Part shown: positions 2,994 through 12,573 of the stretch, piece after piece
How the letters are laid out: each line of letters begins with the position of its first letter
Numbering within the stretch: the first letter of the stretch is position 1
Source of the DNA: a virus
Taxonomy: Duplodnaviria > Heunggongvirae > Uroviricota > Caudoviricetes
Length of the DNA stretch: 12,573 nt
Direction: 5' to 3' (one strand)
IMG/VR virus record: IMGVR_UViG_2737471828_000010
Coordinates: 1-12,573 of that record
Position numbers and translations under genes: made by a program
Notes under the pieces: model-generated
Database searches by the model: none
Told to the model about the DNA's origin: nothing
What the model saw: only the letters and a program-made list of their open reading frames with translations

Positions 2994-3007
2994 ATGGAGA
3001 GTAAGTG

Positions 3008-6000
3008 ATGGGTAAAGGTGGCGGTAAGGCGCATACGCCCCGTGAAGCCAGAGATAACCTGAAATCCTCCCAGTTGCTGAGTGTGATTGACGCCATCAGT
3101 GAAGGACCGGTTTATGGTCCGGTTGACGGGCTGAAAAGTGTCCGCCTGAATGGTACGCCGGTACTGGACAGCGGGGGGAATACCAACTTTTCCGGTGTCA
3201 CGGTGGTGTTCCGTTCCGGTGAACAGGAGCAGACACCGCCGGAGGGGTTTGAATCCTCCGGCTCCGAGACGGTACTGGGTGCGGAAGTGAAATACGACAC
3301 GCCGATAACCCGGACCATCACGTCGGCAAACATCGACCGTCTGCGCCTGACCTTCGGGGTGCAGGCACTGGTGAAAACCACCTCAAAGGGGGACAGGGAG
3401 CCGTCGGAAGTCCGCCTGCTGGTTCAGATACAGCGTAATGGTGGCTGGGTGACGGAAAAAGACATCACCATTAAGGGCAAAACCACCTCGCAGTATCTGG
3501 CATCGGTGGTGGTGGATAACCTGCCGCCGCGCCCGTTTAATATCCGGATGCGCAGGATAACGCCGGACAGCACCACGGACCAGTTGCAGAACAAAACGGT
3601 CTGGTCGTCATACACCGAAATCATCGATGTGAAACAGTGCTACCCGAACACGGCACTGGTCGGTGTGCAGGTGGATTCTGAGCAGTTCGGCAGCCAGCAG
3701 GTGAACCGCACTTACCATTTTCGTGGTCGTATTCTGCAGGTTCCGTCGAACTATAACCCGCAGACGCGGCAATACAGCGGTATCTGGGACGGAACGTTAA
3801 AACCGGCATACAGCAACAACCCGGCCTGGTGTCTGTGGGATATGCTGACCCACCCGCGCTACGGCATGGGGAAACGTCTTGGTGCGGCAGATGTGGATAA
3901 ATGGGCGCTGTATGTCATCGGCCAGTACTGCGACCAGTCAGTGCCGGACGGTTTTGGCGGCACGGAGCCGCGCATCACCTGTAATGCCTGGCTGACCACA
4001 CAACGTAAGGCGTGGGATGTGCTCAGCGATTTCTGCTCGGCGATGCGCTGTATGCCGGTATGGAACGGGCAGACGCTGACGTTCGTGCAGGACCGGCCAT
4101 CGGATAAGGTGTGGACCTATAACCGCAGTAATGTGGCGATGCCGGGTGATGGCGCGCCGTTCCGCTACAGCTTCAGCGCCCTGAAGGACCGCCATAATGC
4201 CGTTGAGGTGAACTGGATTGACCCTGACAACGGCCAGGAGACGGCGACAGAGCTTGTGGAGGACACGCAGGCCATTGCCCGTTACGGTCGTAACGTCACG
4301 AAGATGGATGCCTTTGGCTGTACCAGTCGTGGGCAGGCGCACCGCGCCGGGCTGTGGCTGATTAAAACAGAACTGCTGGAAACGCAGACCGTGGACTTCA
4401 GCGTGGGTGCTGAAGGGCTTCGCCATGTACCGGGCGATGTCATTGAAATCTGCGATGATGACTATGCCGGTATCAGCACCGGCGGGCGCGTGCTGGCGGT
4501 AAACAGCCAGACCCGGACGCTGACGCTCGACCGTGAAATCACGCTGCCATCCTCCGGTACCACGCTGATAAGCCTGGTTGACGGAAGTGGCAATCCGGTC
4601 AGCGTGGAGGTCCAGTCCGTCACCGACGGCGTGAAGGTAAAAGTGAGCCGTGTTCCTGACGGCGTTGCAGAATACAGCGTGTGGGGGCTGAAGCTGCCGA
4701 CGCTGCGTCAGCGCCTGTTTCGCTGTGTGAGTATCCGTGAGAACGATGACGGCACGTATGCCATCACCGCCGTGCAGCATGTACCGGCAAAAGAGGCCAT
4801 CGTGGATAACGGGGCGCACTTTGACGGCGACCAGAGCGGCACGGTGAATGGTGTCACGCCGCCAGCGGTGCAGCACCTGACTGCCGAAGTCACCGCAGAC
4901 AGCGGGGAATATCAGGTGCTGGCGCGCTGGGACACGCCGAAGGTGGTGAAGGGGGTGAGCTTCCTGCTCCGTCTGACCGTAACAGCGGACGAAGGCAGTG
5001 AGCGGCTGGTCAGCACGGCCCGGACGACGGAAACCACATACCGCTTCACGCAACTGGCGCTGGGGAACTACAGGCTGACAGTCCGGGCGGTAAATGCGTG
5101 GGGACAGCAGGGCGATCCGGCATCGGTATCGTTCCGGATTGCCGTACCAGCAGCGCCGTCGCGGATTGAGCTGACACCGGGCTATTTTCAGATAACCGCC
5201 ACGCCGCATCTTGCGGTTTATGATCCGACGGTGCAGTTTGAGTTCTGGTTCTCGGAAAAGCGGATTGCGGATATCAGGCAGGTTGAAACCAGCGCGCGTT
5301 ATCTTGGTACGGCGCTGTACTGGATAGCCGCCAGTATCAATATCAAACCGGGCCATGATTATTACTTTTATATCCGCAGTGTGAACACCGTTGGCAAATC
5401 GGCATTCGTGGAGGCTGTTGGTCAGCCGAGTGATGATGCATCCGGTTATCTGGATTTTTTCAAAGGCGAGATAGGGAAAACCCATCTGGCTCAGGAGCTG
5501 TGGACGCAGATTGATAACGGTCAGCTTGCGCCTGACCTGGCTGAAATCAGGACGTCCATTACGGATGTCAGCAATGAAATCACACAGACCGTCAATAAGA
5601 AACTGGAAGACCAGAGTGCAGCGATCCAGCAGATACAGAAGGTTCAGGTTGATACAAATAATAATCTGAACAGCATGTGGGCTGTGAAGCTGCAACAGAT
5701 GAAGGACGGACGCCTTTATATTGCGGGTATCGGTGCCGGTATTGAGAATACGCCAGCAGGAATGCAGAGTCAGGTGCTGCTGGCGGCAGACAGGATTGCG
5801 ATGATTAATCCTGCGAATGGCAACACAAAGCCGATGTTTGTTGGTCAGGGTGATCAGATATTCATGAATGAAGTGTTCCTGAAATATCTGACGGCTCCCA
5901 CCATTACCAGTGGCGGTAATCCTCCGGCGTTTTCCCTGACTCCGGACGGGCGGCTGACGGCGAAAAATGCGGATATCAGCGGTAACGTGAACGCGAACTC

Positions 6001-6487
6001 CGGGACACTCAACAACGTCACGATAAATGAGAACTGCCGGATTCTGGGAAAACTGTCAGCCAACCAGATTGAAGGCGATATTGTTAAAACAGTGGGTAAG
6101 GCTTTTCCCCGGGACTCCCGGGCACCGGAGCGGTGGCCATCAGGGACCATTACCGTCAGGGTTTATGACGATCAGCCGTTTGACCGGCAAATTGTTATTC
6201 CGGCGGTGGCATTCAGTGGCGCTAAGCATGAGAGAGAGCATACTGATATTTACTCCTCATGCCGTCTGATAGTGCGGAAAAACGGTGCTGAAATTTATAA
6301 CCGTACCGCGCTGGATAATACGCTGATTTACAGTGGTGTTATTGATATGCCAGCAGGCAGAGGTGTAATGACACTGGAGTTTTCGGTATCAGCATGGCTG
6401 GTGAATAACTGGTATCCCACCGCAAGTATCAGCGATTTGCTGGTTGTGGTGATGAAAAAATCCACAGCCGGTATCACGATTAGCTGA
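3008..6487 (+). CDS. J: Tail tip / host specificity protein J (central tail fiber)
   Basis: About 1159 aa. The N-terminus [34 protein letters not shown]... and most of the length are closely similar to lambda gpJ as I recall it. The ORF track begins at GTG 3005, but ATG 3008 with GGAGAG 6 nt upstream is the more likely start. The last ~150 aa and a block near nt 5460-5700 diverge from lambda. Confidence 0.93.
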
Positions 6488-6531: not shown

Positions 6532-6584
6532 TTGTTATTCCTGAATCCTCTCTTCCGGGGCTGACATTGACTTATGGAGTACAT

Positions 6585-8306
6585 ATGGCCGTACAGATAT
6601 CTGGTGTACTGAAAGACGGTGCGGGTAAACCGGTGCAGGCGTGTTCAATTGAATTGCGGTCCAGAAAAACGAGTCCGACGGTGATTGTGCACATTGTGGC
6701 GGAATGTATTACGGACAGTAACGGGCGGTATTTAATCGAAGCCGAGCCAGGATTTTATGATGTTTTTCTTCTCCGTGAAGGGTGGGCTCCGGTAAAAGCC
6801 GGTGAGATTTATGTCACACCGACGGATAAGCCGGATACGCTGAATGCATTTCTGGATGCTCCCAAAGATGGCGATTTGCGTCCTGAGGTGATGAAACGCT
6901 TTGAGATAATGGTGAATACCGTTATTACGCTGTCTGAGCAGGTTACCCGTGATAAGGAGGCAACAGGCGCAGACGCCGCGGCAGCGGCAGAATCGGCGTC
7001 CGCTGCCCGGGAAAGTGAAAGGAAATCGCAGAATTATGAGGTGCAGTCTCAGAAAAATGCAGAGTCTGCAGCCGGAAGTGCGCAGGAGGCCGGACAATAT
7101 GCTGTGGAGGCTGCACAGGCAAGAGATAATACGCAGACCCTTGCTGATGCGGTGCAGAAAAATGCAGAGGTTGTGGCAGAACAGCGTCAGCAGGTGAATA
7201 TACTGGCTGCAGAAATGGCAGAAAATGCCGGACAGGTTCAGCAGGATAAACAGGATACTGAGCGGCTGCTGGAGCAGGCACAACAGGCAGCCAGTGAGTC
7301 TTCAGCCAGTGCCGTGGAGTCGGGGACGCATGCCAGCGAAGCTGCACAGAGTGCACGGCAGGTAAGCAGTGATTTACAGAAGACGGTAACGGCACGTAAT
7401 GAGGCAGAGGGTTTTGCCACAGAGGCCGCCAGTCGTGCAGAAGAGAGTGCACAGATAAAAGCGCAGACGGAGTCCGTGGCTCTGAATGTTCAGCATGTGG
7501 CAGACAGTGTTGTGGCTGTAAGCCAGTCTGTGGAGCTACAGGCCGGGCAGGTGCAGCAACTGGTCAGCCAGGCGGAAGACAGTGCCACGACAGCAGGTGA
7601 ACATGAGCAGGGGGCACTGAAGGCACTGGAGGAGGCCAGGGAGATTGCAAAAACGCCAGGACCACAGGGAGAGCCAGGACCGCAGGGGGAGACCGGCCCA
7701 CAGGGCCCCAGTGGTGAAAAGGGAGAGAAAGGGGACCGGGGCGATACCGGGCCTCAGGGAGAAAAAGGTGAGAAAGGCGATAAAGGTGATACCGGTGCCC
7801 GGGGAGCTACCGGCCCACAGGGGCCTCAGGGACCCATGGGACCCAGCGGAGTTTACCCGGAAGACGGGATAAAGACTGCGAAAAAATTCACGGGTATTCT
7901 GGCTCATGGTTTTATGTATTCTGACCTTCAGTTTCCGTTGCTGAAATATAACCACTACCTTGCCTGTGAAGACCACCCCGTTCCGGGTGCCGCGGGAAAT
8001 TATTCGTATGGTCTGATGTGGCAGGTTCCGACGAATGAGAATGTTTCAGGTCAGATTTTCCTTAACTGTATGGGACAGGCATTCATCAGGGCTTACAGCG
8101 GACTGGGTACCACTTCATGGTGGCAGTTTGCCGGTCGTCCGGTAGCCGGTGGTGTGGGGAGTTACCTGTTCTGTGCTTCTCAGGATGCGGTCAGTTACGG
8201 AGATGAACTGGCCGGAGAGCGGCTTGACCCGGTACAGTCAGGAATATGGATGGCCTGCGGAAATGCAGAAGCTGAAGAGAAAATGCTTTTTCTGAGGGTG
8301 AAATAA
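6585..8306 (+). CDS. stf: Side tail fiber protein (Stf-like) with an Ala/Gln/Glu-rich shaft, a collagen-like tract and a distinct C-terminal domain
   Basis: N-terminus [24 protein letters not shown]... resembles the lambda Stf N-terminus ([17 protein letters not shown]...). ATG 6585 has GGAG 5 nt upstream; the track start TTG 6567 is less likely. Residues ~125-360 form a low-complexity A/Q/E/S-rich region, and the C-terminal ~150 aa is a globular-looking domain I cannot assign. Confidence 0.8.
7659..7850 (+). repeat. Collagen-like Gly-X-Y repeat tract (64 residues) inside the tail fiber gene
   Basis: Uninterrupted G-X-Y periodicity, [64 protein letters not shown], visible in the DNA as repeated ggN-ccN-cag and ggN-gaN-aaa units. 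Confidence 0.85.
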
Positions 8307-8917
8307 TGGATACCAGGAATTCAGAAGCGGACGTGCGCAATGCCCGTTTTAATGAAGACGGCAGCATTACCTGTGAGGTGTTCATGGCAGACCGTTCTGA
8401 TGACAGTCATCGGGTATATGTACCTTATACTGCCAGAGCTTCAGACCCGACAGAATTCGGGTTAAGGCTCTGGTCAGGACTGATATCAGGGGACCTTGGT
8501 GAAGTCACGCCGTTTGTGGTGACAGAGGAGATACTGGAAAAGGCCAGAAATCAGAAATACGGTGAAATCAGTCGCTGGCGTGACAGCCAGGAGAACAGCA
8601 GTTTTGTTTTTGAATTCAGTGGTCATCGCTGGGATGCCGGAAAGGCGTCACAGTCCAGACTGACACCTGTTGTTGCGGTGGCAGGAAACGGGCTGTTGCC
8701 GGAGCATTTTTTCTGGACGGATGCGGATAATCAGGATGTCACTCTGACGCCGGAAGAGCTGATACAACTGGATACTGCGATGAATGCGGCGATGGTGATG
8801 CAGGGGTTTAAAATCCACGAACGCCAGCGCCGGATGAAAGAAGAAGTGGCAGGGCTGACCGCACTGCCGGATATTCGTGCGTATCCTGTTGGCTGGCCGG
8901 AGGGTGATGATGAGTAA
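8306..8917 (+). CDS. Putative tail fiber assembly protein (Tfa-like chaperone)
   Basis: 203 aa ORF whose ATG overlaps the fiber stop (TAATG at 8304..8308), with a GAGGGTG ribosome binding site upstream. Position immediately after the fiber gene and a C-terminal segment (...TPEELIQLDTAMNAAMVMQGFKIHERQRRMKEEVAGLTALPDIRAYPVGWPE) reminiscent of Tfa C-termini. Assigned by context plus weak similarity. Confidence 0.6.
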   Translation: MDTRNSEADVRNARFNEDGSITCEVFMADRSDDSHRVYVPYTARASDPTEFGLRLWSGLISGDLGEVTPFVVTEEILEKARNQKYGEISRWRDSQENSSFVFEFSGHRWDAGKASQSRLTPVVAVAGNGLLPEHFFWTDADNQDVTLTPEELIQLDTAMNAAMVMQGFKIHERQRRMKEEVAGLTALPDIRAYPVGWPEGDDE

Positions 8918-9529: not shown

Positions 9530-9564
9530 TCTGTGAAGATATGCAACATGGCCCATGTTGTAGC

Positions 9565-9597
9565 AAAAAAAGCCTGCCATACAGATATATGGCAGGC
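9565..9597 (-). terminator. Leftward intrinsic terminator candidate (H2, paralog of H1)
   Basis: Stem GCCTGCCATA / TATGGCAGGC with loop cagata, preceded on + by seven A's. On the - strand this reads as a GC stem followed by TTTTTTT. Same stem as H1 with a 1-nt loop difference. Confidence 0.6.
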
Positions 9598-9805
9598 AAA
9601 CGTCTGTTACGGGAAAACAAATGAATGTCGGGTATAGTACCCCCTTACTTGACTCCTTCACAATTATGCATCAATAATGAAACATATAAAGCATTTGTAT
9701 TTTCTTATTGCTGGTTTTGTGTATTGCGTCTCAAAACTAAATTATTTTATTACTCTCATAATAAATGAGGTAAATTATATATATAGTTATTTATTCTGTT
9801 TTTAT

Positions 9806-9834
9806 AAAAAGAAGCCCACAGATTACTGTGGGCT
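9806..9834 (-). terminator. Leftward intrinsic terminator candidate (H3)
   Basis: Stem AGCCCACAG / CTGTGGGCT with loop atta, preceded on + by tataaaaagaa (a U-rich tail on the - strand). Confidence 0.55.
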
Positions 9835-10085
9835 AAGCATTAGCATTATTTATATTAGTATAGTTACGGTTGCTGTAAGCATATTAGCTTACGGAAATGT
9901 TGATAACTCTGATGGGAATCACAAAAAAATACCAGTGCTGAAAATGACAGTACTGGTAAAAATATGATGAGTATTTGCAAAAAATACAACCGAATTGCTC
10001 TGTAAGGTTCACTACCTCTTTTATTCTACTATAAATTATAGTACATAGTTCTGTGATACTTATCACGCTGTATATTCATTGGTAT

Positions 10086-10110
10086 AAAAAGGCCCGTATG
10101 GATACGGGCC
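10086..10110 (-). terminator. Leftward intrinsic terminator candidate (H4)
   Basis: Stem GGCCCGTA / TACGGGCC with loop tgga, preceded on + by tataaaaa. Confidence 0.55.
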
Positions 10111-10207
10111 TGGCTTACGGGATAGGCTAACTGAGTAAGTAGGGTTATGGCTTACTCGCCGGCAGTATACCATATAAAACAACGGACAATTCTTTGCGGT
10201 AAATCAT

Positions 10208-10236
10208 AAAAAAAGACCCGTACCGTACGTGCGGGT
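10208..10236 (-). terminator. Leftward intrinsic terminator candidate (H5)
   Basis: Stem ACCCGTAC / GTGCGGGT (one non-Watson-Crick position) with loop cgtac, preceded on + by seven A's. Confidence 0.45.
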
Positions 10237-10354
10237 GTTAATTGCTGGTGAAGCTGTCAGAGGTGCATATTATTATAATAACGCTTGTAGACGTTTGTTA
10301 TTATTTATGCCCTCTATTACTGGTACTGTGATTTCCATCACAAAAATACATTAT

Positions 10355-10382
10355 AAAAAGAAAGCCCGCAGATTATGCGGGC
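10355..10382 (-). terminator. Leftward intrinsic terminator candidate (H6, paralog of H3)
   Basis: Stem GCCCGCA / TGCGGGC with loop gatta, preceded on + by tataaaaagaaa. Differs from H3 by a compensatory base-pair change (A-T in H3, G-C in H6). Confidence 0.55.
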
Positions 10383-10401
10383 AATAGCTTATGCATGAGA
10401 T

Positions 10402-10426
10402 GAACGACTCCGGGTCGTTTATTTTT
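10402..10426 (+). terminator. Weak rightward hairpin with T-run (possible + strand terminator)
   Basis: Stem AACGAC / GTCGTT with loop tccgg, followed by tatttttc. Short, AT-rich stem. Confidence 0.3.
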
Positions 10427-10568
10427 CTTAATAAGAAGGACTACATTTATATTCTACTATGTAAGTATGGTATTGATGATGTGAAGTATATCTCAAATTA
10501 ACGCAATAAGAAAAAGCAACAACCCATTTCTGAATGTGAGAGAACTGCTAATATAGCAATATGTGTTC

Positions 10569-10609
10569 CTGACTGGTACCACGTATTGCCTGTTCCAGGA
10601 GCATATTTG
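10569..10609. repeat. ~36 nt repeat, copy 2 of 2 (atatgtgttcctgactggtaccacgtattgcctgttccagg)
   Basis: Direct repeat of 9494..9529. Confidence 0.6.
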
Positions 10610-10665
10610 CCTGGATTCAGATTGCTCGTAATTCACCACGGCTATAAATCGTAAAGAAAATTGCA

Positions 10666-10718
10666 GCACGCCCTATGCAAGAACGTGCCACGGCTGGCTG
10701 GCAAACTTTCGATAGTGC
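10666..10718. repeat. ~50 nt imperfect direct repeat, left copy (hairpin with loop tatgcaaga ... cgatagtgc), left flank of the peptidase cassette
   Basis: gcacg-ccctatgcaagaa-cgtgc-cacggctggctggcaaactttcgatagtgc aligns with 12269..12321 (first 15 nt tatgcaagaacgtgc identical; roughly 80 percent identity over the remainder). Confidence 0.65.
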
Positions 10719-10998
10719 GAGTATTGAATGATTTCCAGTCGTTATTGATTCTACGCATTAATTTATGAACAAACTACTTATCTGTGGTCTTTCGGTCTGT
10801 AATAGGGGCCCTGTCTGAAATGGAGTTTCAGGATTAAGCGATATCGTACTCACCCTTAGTCCCACCTGATAAATCTGGAGAACGGAAGCACTGCCAGATG
10901 ATGGTGGTGGCTACAATTACTCACACTCAATATTCGGAGCAATCACGTACATCATCACGATGCTAGGAATGCGGAGTTTGATGACTGTCCAGTGATGT

Positions 10999-11029
10999 AA
11001 AAAGAGACCCCGGCGTAGTAGCCGAGGTC
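10999..11029 (-). terminator. Leftward intrinsic terminator candidate for the peptidase gene
   Basis: Stem GACCCCGGC / GCCGAGGTC (one mismatch) with loop gtagta, 22 nt downstream of the - strand stop at 11051..11053. On the - strand it is followed by tctcTTTTT. Confidence 0.5.
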
Positions 11030-11050
11030 CTCAATCAGAAACTACAATAT

Positions 11051-12055
11051 TCACTGAGTGCCTTCATCTGGTTGCTCTGCTGGTAAGGTTCCAGCCTCTT
11101 CTTCAATTTCCGCATGTTTTCCATCGCTTCCCTGGACAGGTTCATCCCTTGGCGGTTCTGCTCTTCCTGAATTTTGGTCAGAGATTTCATCTCCTTCCTG
11201 AATTCTGCTGTTGTCATGGGAATCTTCCTCTGCGTTAGTTGTTTCATATTGTTTTTTAGGAGTTAAATCTTTAATCACCGGTTTGTCGAAGATAGAGATT
11301 TCGCCTGACGAAATCATCTCACCAAGAACTTCGTACAGGTTGGCTGCAAAGTCTGTAGGACTCTCAACATGGTTGAATAGTTCCCTCGCCTCTTTACGGT
11401 CTATCACAAAACCATGGGCTGGATATCCAGCGATCAACTTGCCTAAGGAGCTTTCCTTAAGATTTTTCGAGTGACTATTCAAACGCTCCCCATAGGAAAG
11501 CGCTATGTTCATTGCTCGTTGATGCTCCCCGAGTTTGATGGGGTCTATCTGTGAGGCCATCGGCGATATGATTGCTTCAGTAAGCTTAGCAGCAATATCT
11601 GCAGACATCTTCGTGCTAATTTGGTTTCTGTACTTTATATCAAGTACGTATGATCTAAAGGTCGAAATAGCGCACTCTTTTATTTCATCAATCGCCGTTG
11701 CGATAACAAGGCCCGAGCTCAATTCGCCGATCTCATCATTTTTCTTAAGTTGGATGTCTAGAGGACCAAGCTCACCCATATCACCAATCACGAGCTTATG
11801 AGCGGCGACAGCCATCAAGGTTCCAGCACTTTTGCAAGGGCCAACAACTAGAACGGTGATGTGTTCATAGTTGTGTTGCAAAGCGCGGCCAATTCTATAT
11901 CCTGCGCTGGGATCACCGCCATAGGTAGCGACGCAAAAAAGAACATTTTTTTGTAAACCATGGTTAGTTTTTCTTTCTTTAATCGCTTTGGTGATGTCGT
12001 GATGACCAGAGCGGTGAACATCGCCTATGTATACGTAAACGTCTGTATCTTGCAT
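11051..12055 (-). CDS. Stand-alone ClpP/SppA-fold serine peptidase-like protein (S49/SDH-like) with an acidic low-complexity C-terminal tail
   Basis: 334 aa ORF with ribosome binding site AGGGA 5 nt upstream of the ATG (- strand). N-terminal ~220 aa follows the ClpP-fold pattern: ATYGGDPSAGYRIGRAL echoes the ClpP NSPGGSVTAG segment, and VVGPCKSAGTLMAVAAHK echoes the ClpP/SppA nucleophile segment (GQAASMG type), giving a candidate catalytic Ser in CKSAG. The last ~70 aa are Asp/Glu-rich and low complexity. No His in the position of the ClpP catalytic His, so a Ser-Lys dyad (SppA-like) is possible. Confidence 0.6.
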   Translation of the reverse strand: MQDTDVYVYIGDVHRSGHHDITKAIKERKTNHGLQKNVLFCVATYGGDPSAGYRIGRALQHNYEHITVLVVGPCKSAGTLMAVAAHKLVIGDMGELGPLDIQLKKNDEIGELSSGLVIATAIDEIKECAISTFRSYVLDIKYRNQISTKMSADIAAKLTEAIISPMASQIDPIKLGEHQRAMNIALSYGERLNSHSKNLKESSLGKLIAGYPAHGFVIDRKEARELFNHVESPTDFAANLYEVLGEMISSGEISIFDKPVIKDLTPKKQYETTNAEEDSHDNSRIQEGDEISDQNSGRAEPPRDEPVQGSDGKHAEIEEEAGTLPAEQPDEGTQ

Positions 12056-12268
12056 TTTAATCCCTATGAATAAAATGGTTGAATTTAATGCTGTTCCTCA
12101 GCCAAAGCACTATATCGATAACCAAAATACCTCAGATTTGTCGAGAAAACTATCTGGAAAATTAGGCTAACTCTTTGAATCTTCGGAATGCAAAAGAGAT
12201 ACTTTCTCTGGATGTGCGCCAGGTTGATGTGTAAGTATGGCGGTCAGAATAGTCTCGAAAAACCGCAG

Positions 12269-12321
12269 GCACGTTGTATGCAAGAACGTGCTGTGGTTGG
12301 CAGGTGAACTTCCGATAGTGC
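12269..12321. repeat. ~50 nt imperfect direct repeat, right copy; also a terminator-like hairpin directly downstream of the DinI-like gene
   Basis: gcacgtt-gtatgcaag-aacgtgc then tgtggttggcaggtgaacttccgatagtgc. On the - strand the hairpin is followed by a T-run (complement of aaaaa at 12258..12262). Confidence 0.6.
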
Positions 12322-12324
12322 TCA

Positions 12325-12573
12325 TTAGTGAACAAACCACTCGTCAGCAGACTCCCAGGTATCTTTCAGAGTTTCCTGCACAAAAGTTTTAGCTGAATCT
12401 TTATCGGCTGTGCGCGTAACAGAAAGGCCATCGTTGCTGGTGGCTTTTACGATCACCTCTACATCGTCATAACGCTTACTGATGCGTCGGGTTAATTCTT
12501 CCTTTAACGCATCCACAGCACTGGTTGGCATTTTAGTCATTTTTTCTTTGGCTATGCAGATTTCAATACGCAT
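12325..12573 (-). CDS. dinI: DinI-family protein (DNA damage-inducible protein I-like, prophage-encoded)
   Basis: 82 aa: [37 protein letters not shown]...[15 protein letters not shown]. Start and C-terminal WESAD-WFV motif match E. coli DinI as I recall it (MRIEVTIAK...ETWESADDWFVSE). The start codon is the last three bases of the window, so the promoter is outside it. Confidence 0.85.

Follow-up and report, generated by a model that had tools for sequence, protein, structure and literature searches.

The window analyzed here, a 12,573-nt stretch of DNA from a virus of the Caudoviricetes, ends in a small DinI-like gene that lies beside a protease gene. An earlier note on this DNA raised the possibility that the two are expressed together in the SOS response. 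The question is therefore whether this locus is one damage-responsive module or a LexA-controlled gene with independent cargo behind it.

By Pfam, what remains of the window forms the right arm of a lambdoid prophage, with gpJ at 3005–6487, a tail fiber (Stf) at 6567–8306, and a DUF4376 tail-fiber assembly protein (Tfa) at 8306–8917. The final 4001 nt of the window recur with one mismatch (99.975% identity) in an E. coli contig (GCA_025384725.2, locus L190). Both L190 and five other loci with an identical protease have the gene order protease, dinI, tyrosine integrase, dusA. This order is also annotated in E. coli GXU-23-25-310 (98.8% identity), whose prophage measures about 49 kb and is bounded at its far end by a dusA fragment; the repressor of this prophage is a YmfK-like LexA-family S24 protein. 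The prophage is lambdoid and integrated into dusA, and dinI lies at its int-proximal end, between int and variable cargo. The two neighbors differ widely in frequency: a DinI-like sequence of the window type was detected in 3120 of 5426 complete E. coli genomes, at up to 8 places per genome, and also in mEp460 and many Stx-converting phages, and the protease in only 21 of the 5426. Insertion sequences were seen in two related loci. In E. coli UTME-7 (L103, 7365–8333), IS903B has entered the dinI–protease leader without disrupting the protease ORF, and a related prophage (L104) carries IS621 within its major capsid gene and, in the tail region, an element of the IS66 family. These insertions indicate that some carriers are defective.

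The DinI-like ORF (12325–12573, - strand) is complete and encodes 82 aa. Its ATG (12573–12571) is formed by the final three bases of the window, and its TAA stop lies at 12327–12325. The ORF matched the Pfam DinI profile (PF06183) over profile positions 1–63 of 63 with 70.1 bits (cut-off 24.2, E 2e-19), PHROG 189 "RecA filament binding protein DinI" (1.6e-30), and the E. coli DinI structures 1GHH/7YWA (2.9e-12, 45% identity over the full length). The product is a single small DinI domain with an acidic C-terminal helix. The earlier note had described a prophage-borne DinI-family gene next to a cargo protease, both on the - strand, and these matches and the ORF positions agree with that description. 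Against the NCBIfam equivalog for the E. coli dinI orthologue (NF007893), the ORF scored 69.5 bits. Because this falls under the equivalog cut-off of 111 bits, the gene is classed as a DinI-like paralogue and not as the orthologue.

RecA–DinI cryo-EM and mutagenesis have defined a hydrophobic pocket in DinI (L13, L21, W71, W77, and F78) that receives RecA F203, and an acidic patch (E24, E69, and D76) that faces RecA K232/R243/K245 (PMC9926225). In our alignment, all eight of these residues are identical or conservatively replaced in the window protein. L21, E24, W71, W77, and F78 correspond to L23, E26, W73, W79, and F80, and the replacements are L13 to M15, E69 to D71, and D76 to E78. Conservation of these contacts predicts that the protein binds RecA nucleoprotein filaments. 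It resembles chromosomal E. coli DinI in length, fold family, sequence (45% identity), RecA contacts, and a LexA-controlled promoter, and it keeps the acidic C-terminal helix TWESAD(D/E)WF. Unlike chromosomal dinI, the window gene is a paralogue (69.5 vs 111 bits) and lies on a prophage next to int. As a gene, it is of a well-known and very common prophage kind, and this copy adds nothing new to the picture.

The promoter of dinI and any LexA box were expected by the earlier note to lie outside the window, and they were found just past base 12573 in L190. On the dinI strand, L190 reads ...CC TTGACA CTGTTTATCCATACAG C TAAAAA TAATA CTGTATACAAACACAG TATAGAGGGACTTTT ATG, with int and then dusA beyond, where TATAGAGGGACTTTT stands for the 15 nt between the second box, CTGTATACAAACACAG, and the ATG. 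Inspecting the region upstream of 12573, as the note had proposed, gave two perfect CTGT-N8-ACAG boxes over the promoter, starting at -59 and -31 from the dinI ATG. The first fills the 17-nt spacer of the TTGACA/TAAAAA promoter, and the second covers the expected start region and is followed by a GAGGGA ribosome-binding site. Promoter and boxes are all contained in an int–dinI spacer of 61 nt. Among related loci, all 62 for which 70 nt or more of upstream sequence is available have the two boxes, and the GenBank record of mEp460 carries a promoter annotation at the matching position. Within the 12.5-kb window itself, a perfect CTGT-N8-ACAG occurs only once, at 94–109. The arrangement by which SOS regulon genes are recognized, a LexA box over the promoter, is thus seen outside the window, in L190 and its relatives. 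A scan for a terminator between int and dinI found none, so transcripts of int may continue into dinI as well.

Salmonella prophages provide the closest precedent for such control. In Gifsy-1, -2, and -3, a LexA box lies 19 nt from the ATG of the dinI homologues, and nalidixic acid raised expression of these genes 4.6- to 23-fold in Salmonella (PMC8072944). The Gifsy homologues head LexA-controlled operons (Lemire et al. 2011, PMC3121763). The window gene is likewise prophage-borne, outside the immunity region, and preceded by LexA boxes just upstream of the ATG. LexA control of the window dinI is predicted: induction by DNA damage has been reported for the Gifsy genes (PMC3121763; PMC8072944), whereas for the window gene it is predicted by sequence only. 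The two arrangements also differ. Gifsy dinI has one box and forms an operon with a small antirepressor and irsA, while the window dinI has two boxes, a terminator directly after it, and no antirepressor ORF, and a related prophage has an S24-type repressor. What the present analysis adds is that LexA control of this prophage dinI is documented at the sequence level, with two invariant operators. A separate arrangement was seen in E. coli Nissle 1917 (L102, 4473–5183), where an intact humD-like S24 gene diverges from a DinI-like gene of a different kind, with about 20–80 nt separating the two. The spacer between them holds imperfect LexA-like boxes (CTGGATGGATATACAG and CTGTGTTTTTATCCGG), and the two genes would form a compact pair of SOS accessory genes at the end of a prophage.

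Downstream of dinI, the - strand carries a stem-loop at 12263–12298 (CCACAGCACGUU...AACGUGCCUGCGG) that, with the U5 after it (12258–12298 in all), is canonical in form for an intrinsic terminator. Its predicted folding energy is -14.2 kcal/mol for the hairpin segment and -16.9 kcal/mol for a 76-nt stretch. Fifteen sequence variants of the hairpin, including both copies in the window, were folded one by one, and all of them form the hairpin (-12.6 to -23.2 kcal/mol) with compensatory changes such as CAGC/GCUG, CGGU/ACCG, and UGGC/GCUA. A covariation count from a MAFFT alignment was dropped since the bulge was ungapped. The U-tract is absent from the hairpin in many relatives, and the APEC O78 version has only U3. 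The many relatives without a U-tract suggest that the conserved role of the hairpin may be other than termination.

This hairpin belongs to a 3′ element that is conserved across 85 loci, and homology between phages ends just past it. The copy next to dinI (12269–12341) comprises the last dinI codons and the conserved 3′ element, in a "short" allele without 42 nt that most phages have. Beyond the hairpin, 27 different arrangements were found among the 85 loci. Convergent neighbors are tail-fiber, tail-fiber assembly, or invertase genes, and co-oriented cargo includes acyltransferases, a possible reverse-transcriptase pair, and others (loci L005–L084, surveyed 0–2.5 kb downstream of dinI). Coliphage mEp460 and Stx-converting phages illustrate this variety. 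mEp460 gp21, "RecA filament binding protein DinI", is encoded by a nearly identical gene that the Stx-converting phages have too, and these phages share with the window the int–dinI order, the two-box promoter, and the 3′ element. They differ in that their dinI lies directly before a convergent tail-fiber gene or other cargo. Mosaic junctions recur at the dinI 3′ hairpin, with one cargo gene exchanged for another beyond it, which is a further point that this locus contributes.

Several cargo genes seen in the survey may be recorded here. The L036 group encodes a 183-aa membrane protein and a 456-aa putative protein that resembles a reverse transcriptase. L016 and L052 carry putative acyltransferases, and L023 encodes a putative 583-aa effector-like protein. 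A small ORF or antirepressor within the 3′ element was considered and rejected, as the reading frame differs between phages. In L105 (3110–3173), a leader that is shared with the window abuts what appears to be the 3′ ~64 nt of tRNA-Ser(CGA), in which ARAGORN recognized no complete tRNA. The junction motif GGTTTT(T)CGAGAC (window ~12253–12284) resembles the tRNA-Ser(CGA) anticodon stem-loop. From this resemblance, the dinI terminator may be the site of a junction of the att-like or microhomology type.

The neighboring gene (11051–12055, - strand) encodes a ClpP-fold ("SDH/SppA-like") serine protease of 334 aa, as judged from profiles and motifs. It has the invariant motifs CKSAGT (the nucleophile motif), GELGPLDIQ, and GEHQR and a variable acidic tail, and its family comprises 2848 homologues. 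Profile scores fell under the thresholds for both Pfam PF01972 (27.0 vs 31.3 bits) and NCBIfam NF047768 (35.9 vs 250 bits). These scores leave the protein outside the SDH family of Clp-fold serine proteinases, a name that RefSeq uses anyway, and a divergent ClpP-fold relative is the most fitting description. Its PHROGs match is an entry of unknown function. An assignment as a known defense protein was rejected, with no PADLOC match and no PDB relative by sequence profile, and a literature search for such a role returned nothing. Past the protease stop codon, a terminator-like hairpin (11005–11030, - strand) has a stem of 10 base pairs, including 7 G-C pairs, and then CTTTTT.

Close relatives of the protease normally occupy a different position. 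Proteins with 59–85% identity are encoded directly behind cI-type repressors, co-oriented with them and in the position of lambda rexAB, in Klebsiella, Kluyvera, E. coli, and metagenomic prophages (loci L085–L101, with the protease at 4001–5011 in most). A Bartonella relative with ~44% identity is also found behind a cI-type gene. Nucleotide homology between the window and the cI-adjacent loci is confined to the protease ORF. The order in these relatives (cI, protease, then N or kil) is like the lambda rexAB-type "moron" slot, and unlike it, the window protease has moved behind dinI. A general functional tie between the protease family and S24 repressors was rejected, as an HTH-S24 gene was found upstream in only 5 of 71 distant species, a count based on crude picking of upstream ORFs. 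The cI link is therefore restricted to the clade of enterobacterial and Bartonella prophages.

Does SOS control extend from dinI to the protease? If it did, dinI and the protease would form one SOS-induced unit in which the hairpin terminates leakily or serves as a processing site, and read-through from the LexA-controlled promoter accounts for most expression of the cargo. We consider this unlikely. The two genes are co-oriented with a spacer of 269 nt, most of which is the leader between the dinI terminator and the protease start (12056–12257, - strand), and a crude consensus scan of the - strand found no sigma-70 promoter in this spacer. Read-through of the terminator into the protease is therefore possible, although a scan this crude could also have missed a weak moron promoter. 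The window hairpin is among the weakest of the variants (-14.2 kcal/mol), and its APEC O78 counterpart has only U3, which would favor leakage; against this, the stem-loop with U5 is a canonical intrinsic terminator. Gifsy dinI is the first gene of a LexA-controlled operon (PMC3121763), which gives the single-unit reading a precedent. Near the protease, no LexA box was found within 2.7 kb on either strand, and one-mismatch matches occurred at chance level. The position of the 59–85% relatives behind cI, with DNA homology that stops at the ORF, also speaks against a shared unit and implies expression in the lysogenic state. In UTME-7, IS903B parts dinI from a protease ORF that is still intact.

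The possibility raised by the earlier note thus divides. For dinI, SOS control holds at the level of its two LexA boxes. For the protease, the terminator that intervenes, the lack of a LexA box, and the normal location of close relatives behind prophage cI genes all count against it. The protease is independent, swapped-in cargo, and its control by the SOS response is not supported.

One further observation bears on read-through. About 140 nt of the spacer (about 12120–12262) is 76–82% identical to the leader of a cargo gene in e14-like prophages that encodes a LEM-3-like GIY-YIG nuclease (L105, 2933–3110; L106, 2933–3290). In L106, and so in at least one such strain, this leader follows a truncated dinI and the hairpin. 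Recurrence of the same leader after the dinI 3′ end and hairpin, ahead of a different cargo gene, suggests a fixed "slot" and is a point in favor of the single-unit reading. Extended to other cargo, the hairpin and the shared ~140-nt leader would be an SOS-gated slot whose swappable genes are read through upon DNA damage or induction, an idea that we rate as even less probable. Were it true, the protease would act during induction and not in the quiescent lysogen, for example, on cleaved fragments of the S24 repressor or as an abortive or exclusion factor.

How the protease came to lie behind dinI can be read from a repeat that flanks it. The hairpin downstream of dinI was described in the earlier note as the right-hand copy of this repeat, and the alignment bears this out: 10666–10718 matches 12269–12321 (79% over 53 nt), and 10761–10778 matches 12324–12341 (83%). 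The note had the repeat flanking a peptidase cassette, and a reading of the two copies as cassette ends did not hold up. Both copies align with the conserved dinI 3′ region of other phages. The left copy (10663–10800, - strand; hairpin at 10663–10691) is the decayed 3′ end of a second dinI with a 3′ element of the long allele. This allele is preceded by ...AGTAGTTTGTTCATAAAT, a dinI end in which TGG has become TAG and the stop codon is lost. As read from these remnants, the left copy is the relic of a second, destroyed dinI, and recognizing the "cassette repeat" as such a relic is another addition of this work. Insertion of a cassette behind dinI was accordingly rejected, as the left repeat is the remnant of another dinI. 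The incoming DNA therefore brought dinI and the protease in together.

Other remnants lie between the left copy and the protease. A 33-nt fragment of a serine invertase (...GALSEMEFQD*; 10805–10837, + strand) is fused to the C-terminal remnant of a humD/umuD′-like S24 peptidase (10827–11004, + strand). The latter is a pseudogene whose nucleotide sequence is 70–78% identical to those of intact "HumD family / S24 family peptidase" genes, and PGAP labels the homologous stretch as a frameshifted S24 fragment. The same invertase–humD junction occurs in APEC O78 next to prfC, where 115 invertase codons survive. From 10661/10663 to 12573, the sequence is common to phages with quite different bodies (99.5% identity), and divergence begins to the left, with lambdoid tails, Mu-like baseplates, or invertase modules beyond ~10661–10663. 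The simplest reading is that a block of invertase fragment, humD remnant, protease, and dinI recombined into the dusA phage and replaced most of the resident dinI, leaving the "flanking repeat" as a by-product.

A search for an Rfam family that describes the repeated hairpin gave a single match, of the left copy to the Shigella sRNA CssrB, and this was below threshold. The match is to the 3′ terminal hairpin of CssrB (window 10637–10692, + strand; 24.9 bits vs a gathering score of 76). Shigella CssrB may end at a dinI-type hairpin on the opposite strand.

Taken as a whole, the locus is best explained as a functional, LexA-controlled prophage dinI paralogue that would tune RecA, with the protease as independent cargo, and we hold this explanation with good confidence. 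Transcription of dinI would start from its own sigma-70 promoter in the 61-nt int–dinI spacer, with tandem LexA operators, one between the -35 and -10 elements and the other across the start region. The gene would be silent in undamaged lysogens and strongly induced once RecA* triggers LexA cleavage, and most transcripts would end at the hairpin and U5 (12258–12298). We infer that the product lodges in the groove of the RecA filament as E. coli DinI does, namely, the groove used by LexA, UmuD, and lambda-CI-type repressors. There it may stabilize RecA* while competing with S24 substrates, the prophage's own repressor among them. Tuning of filament stability and co-protease activity during SOS could in this way set the timing or threshold at which its own S24-type repressor is cleaved. 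The protease would have arrived with this copy of dinI through the recombination that destroyed the resident dinI, and it would stand outside the LexA-controlled unit, save for whatever read-through of the terminator occurs.

Non-polar deletion of the Gifsy dinI homologues had no measurable effect on induction (PMC3121763), and the physiological role ascribed to phage DinI is therefore putative. It is highly improbable that the gene instead belongs to an antirepressor-type switch that inactivates the repressor without modulating RecA, as in Gifsy dinI-gftA-irsA or 186 Tum: its LexA-controlled promoter and its place outside the immunity region do match those systems, but no antirepressor ORF is fused or adjacent to it, dinI is not followed by any conserved ORF, the frame of the 3′ element varies from phage to phage, 57-codon ORFs that overlap the window hairpin are interrupted in APEC O78, the 82-aa protein consists of one DinI domain and lacks an additional Tum-like half, and the related prophage has a YmfK-like S24 repressor of the self-cleaving type. 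Prophage DinI copies, which most complete E. coli genomes (over half) contain, could shift the speed at which RecA* promotes cleavage of LexA, UmuD, and phage repressors. They may in turn influence prophage induction and SOS mutagenesis under antibiotics.

To the left of the recombined block, the window contains an AT-rich stretch of ~1 kb (9570–10400) with no convincing ORF or annotation and no Rfam match. Its hairpin units (9560–10662) were considered as a repeated sRNA array, which was rejected, as the units align unconvincingly. The stretch holds four copies of a ~28-nt ...ATCACAAAAAAATAC motif and four terminator-like hairpins, all on the - strand (9572–9597, 9813–9834, 10090–10111, and 10364–10382). 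A scan of the AT-rich region found 9 terminator-like hairpins, compared with 2.1 expected.
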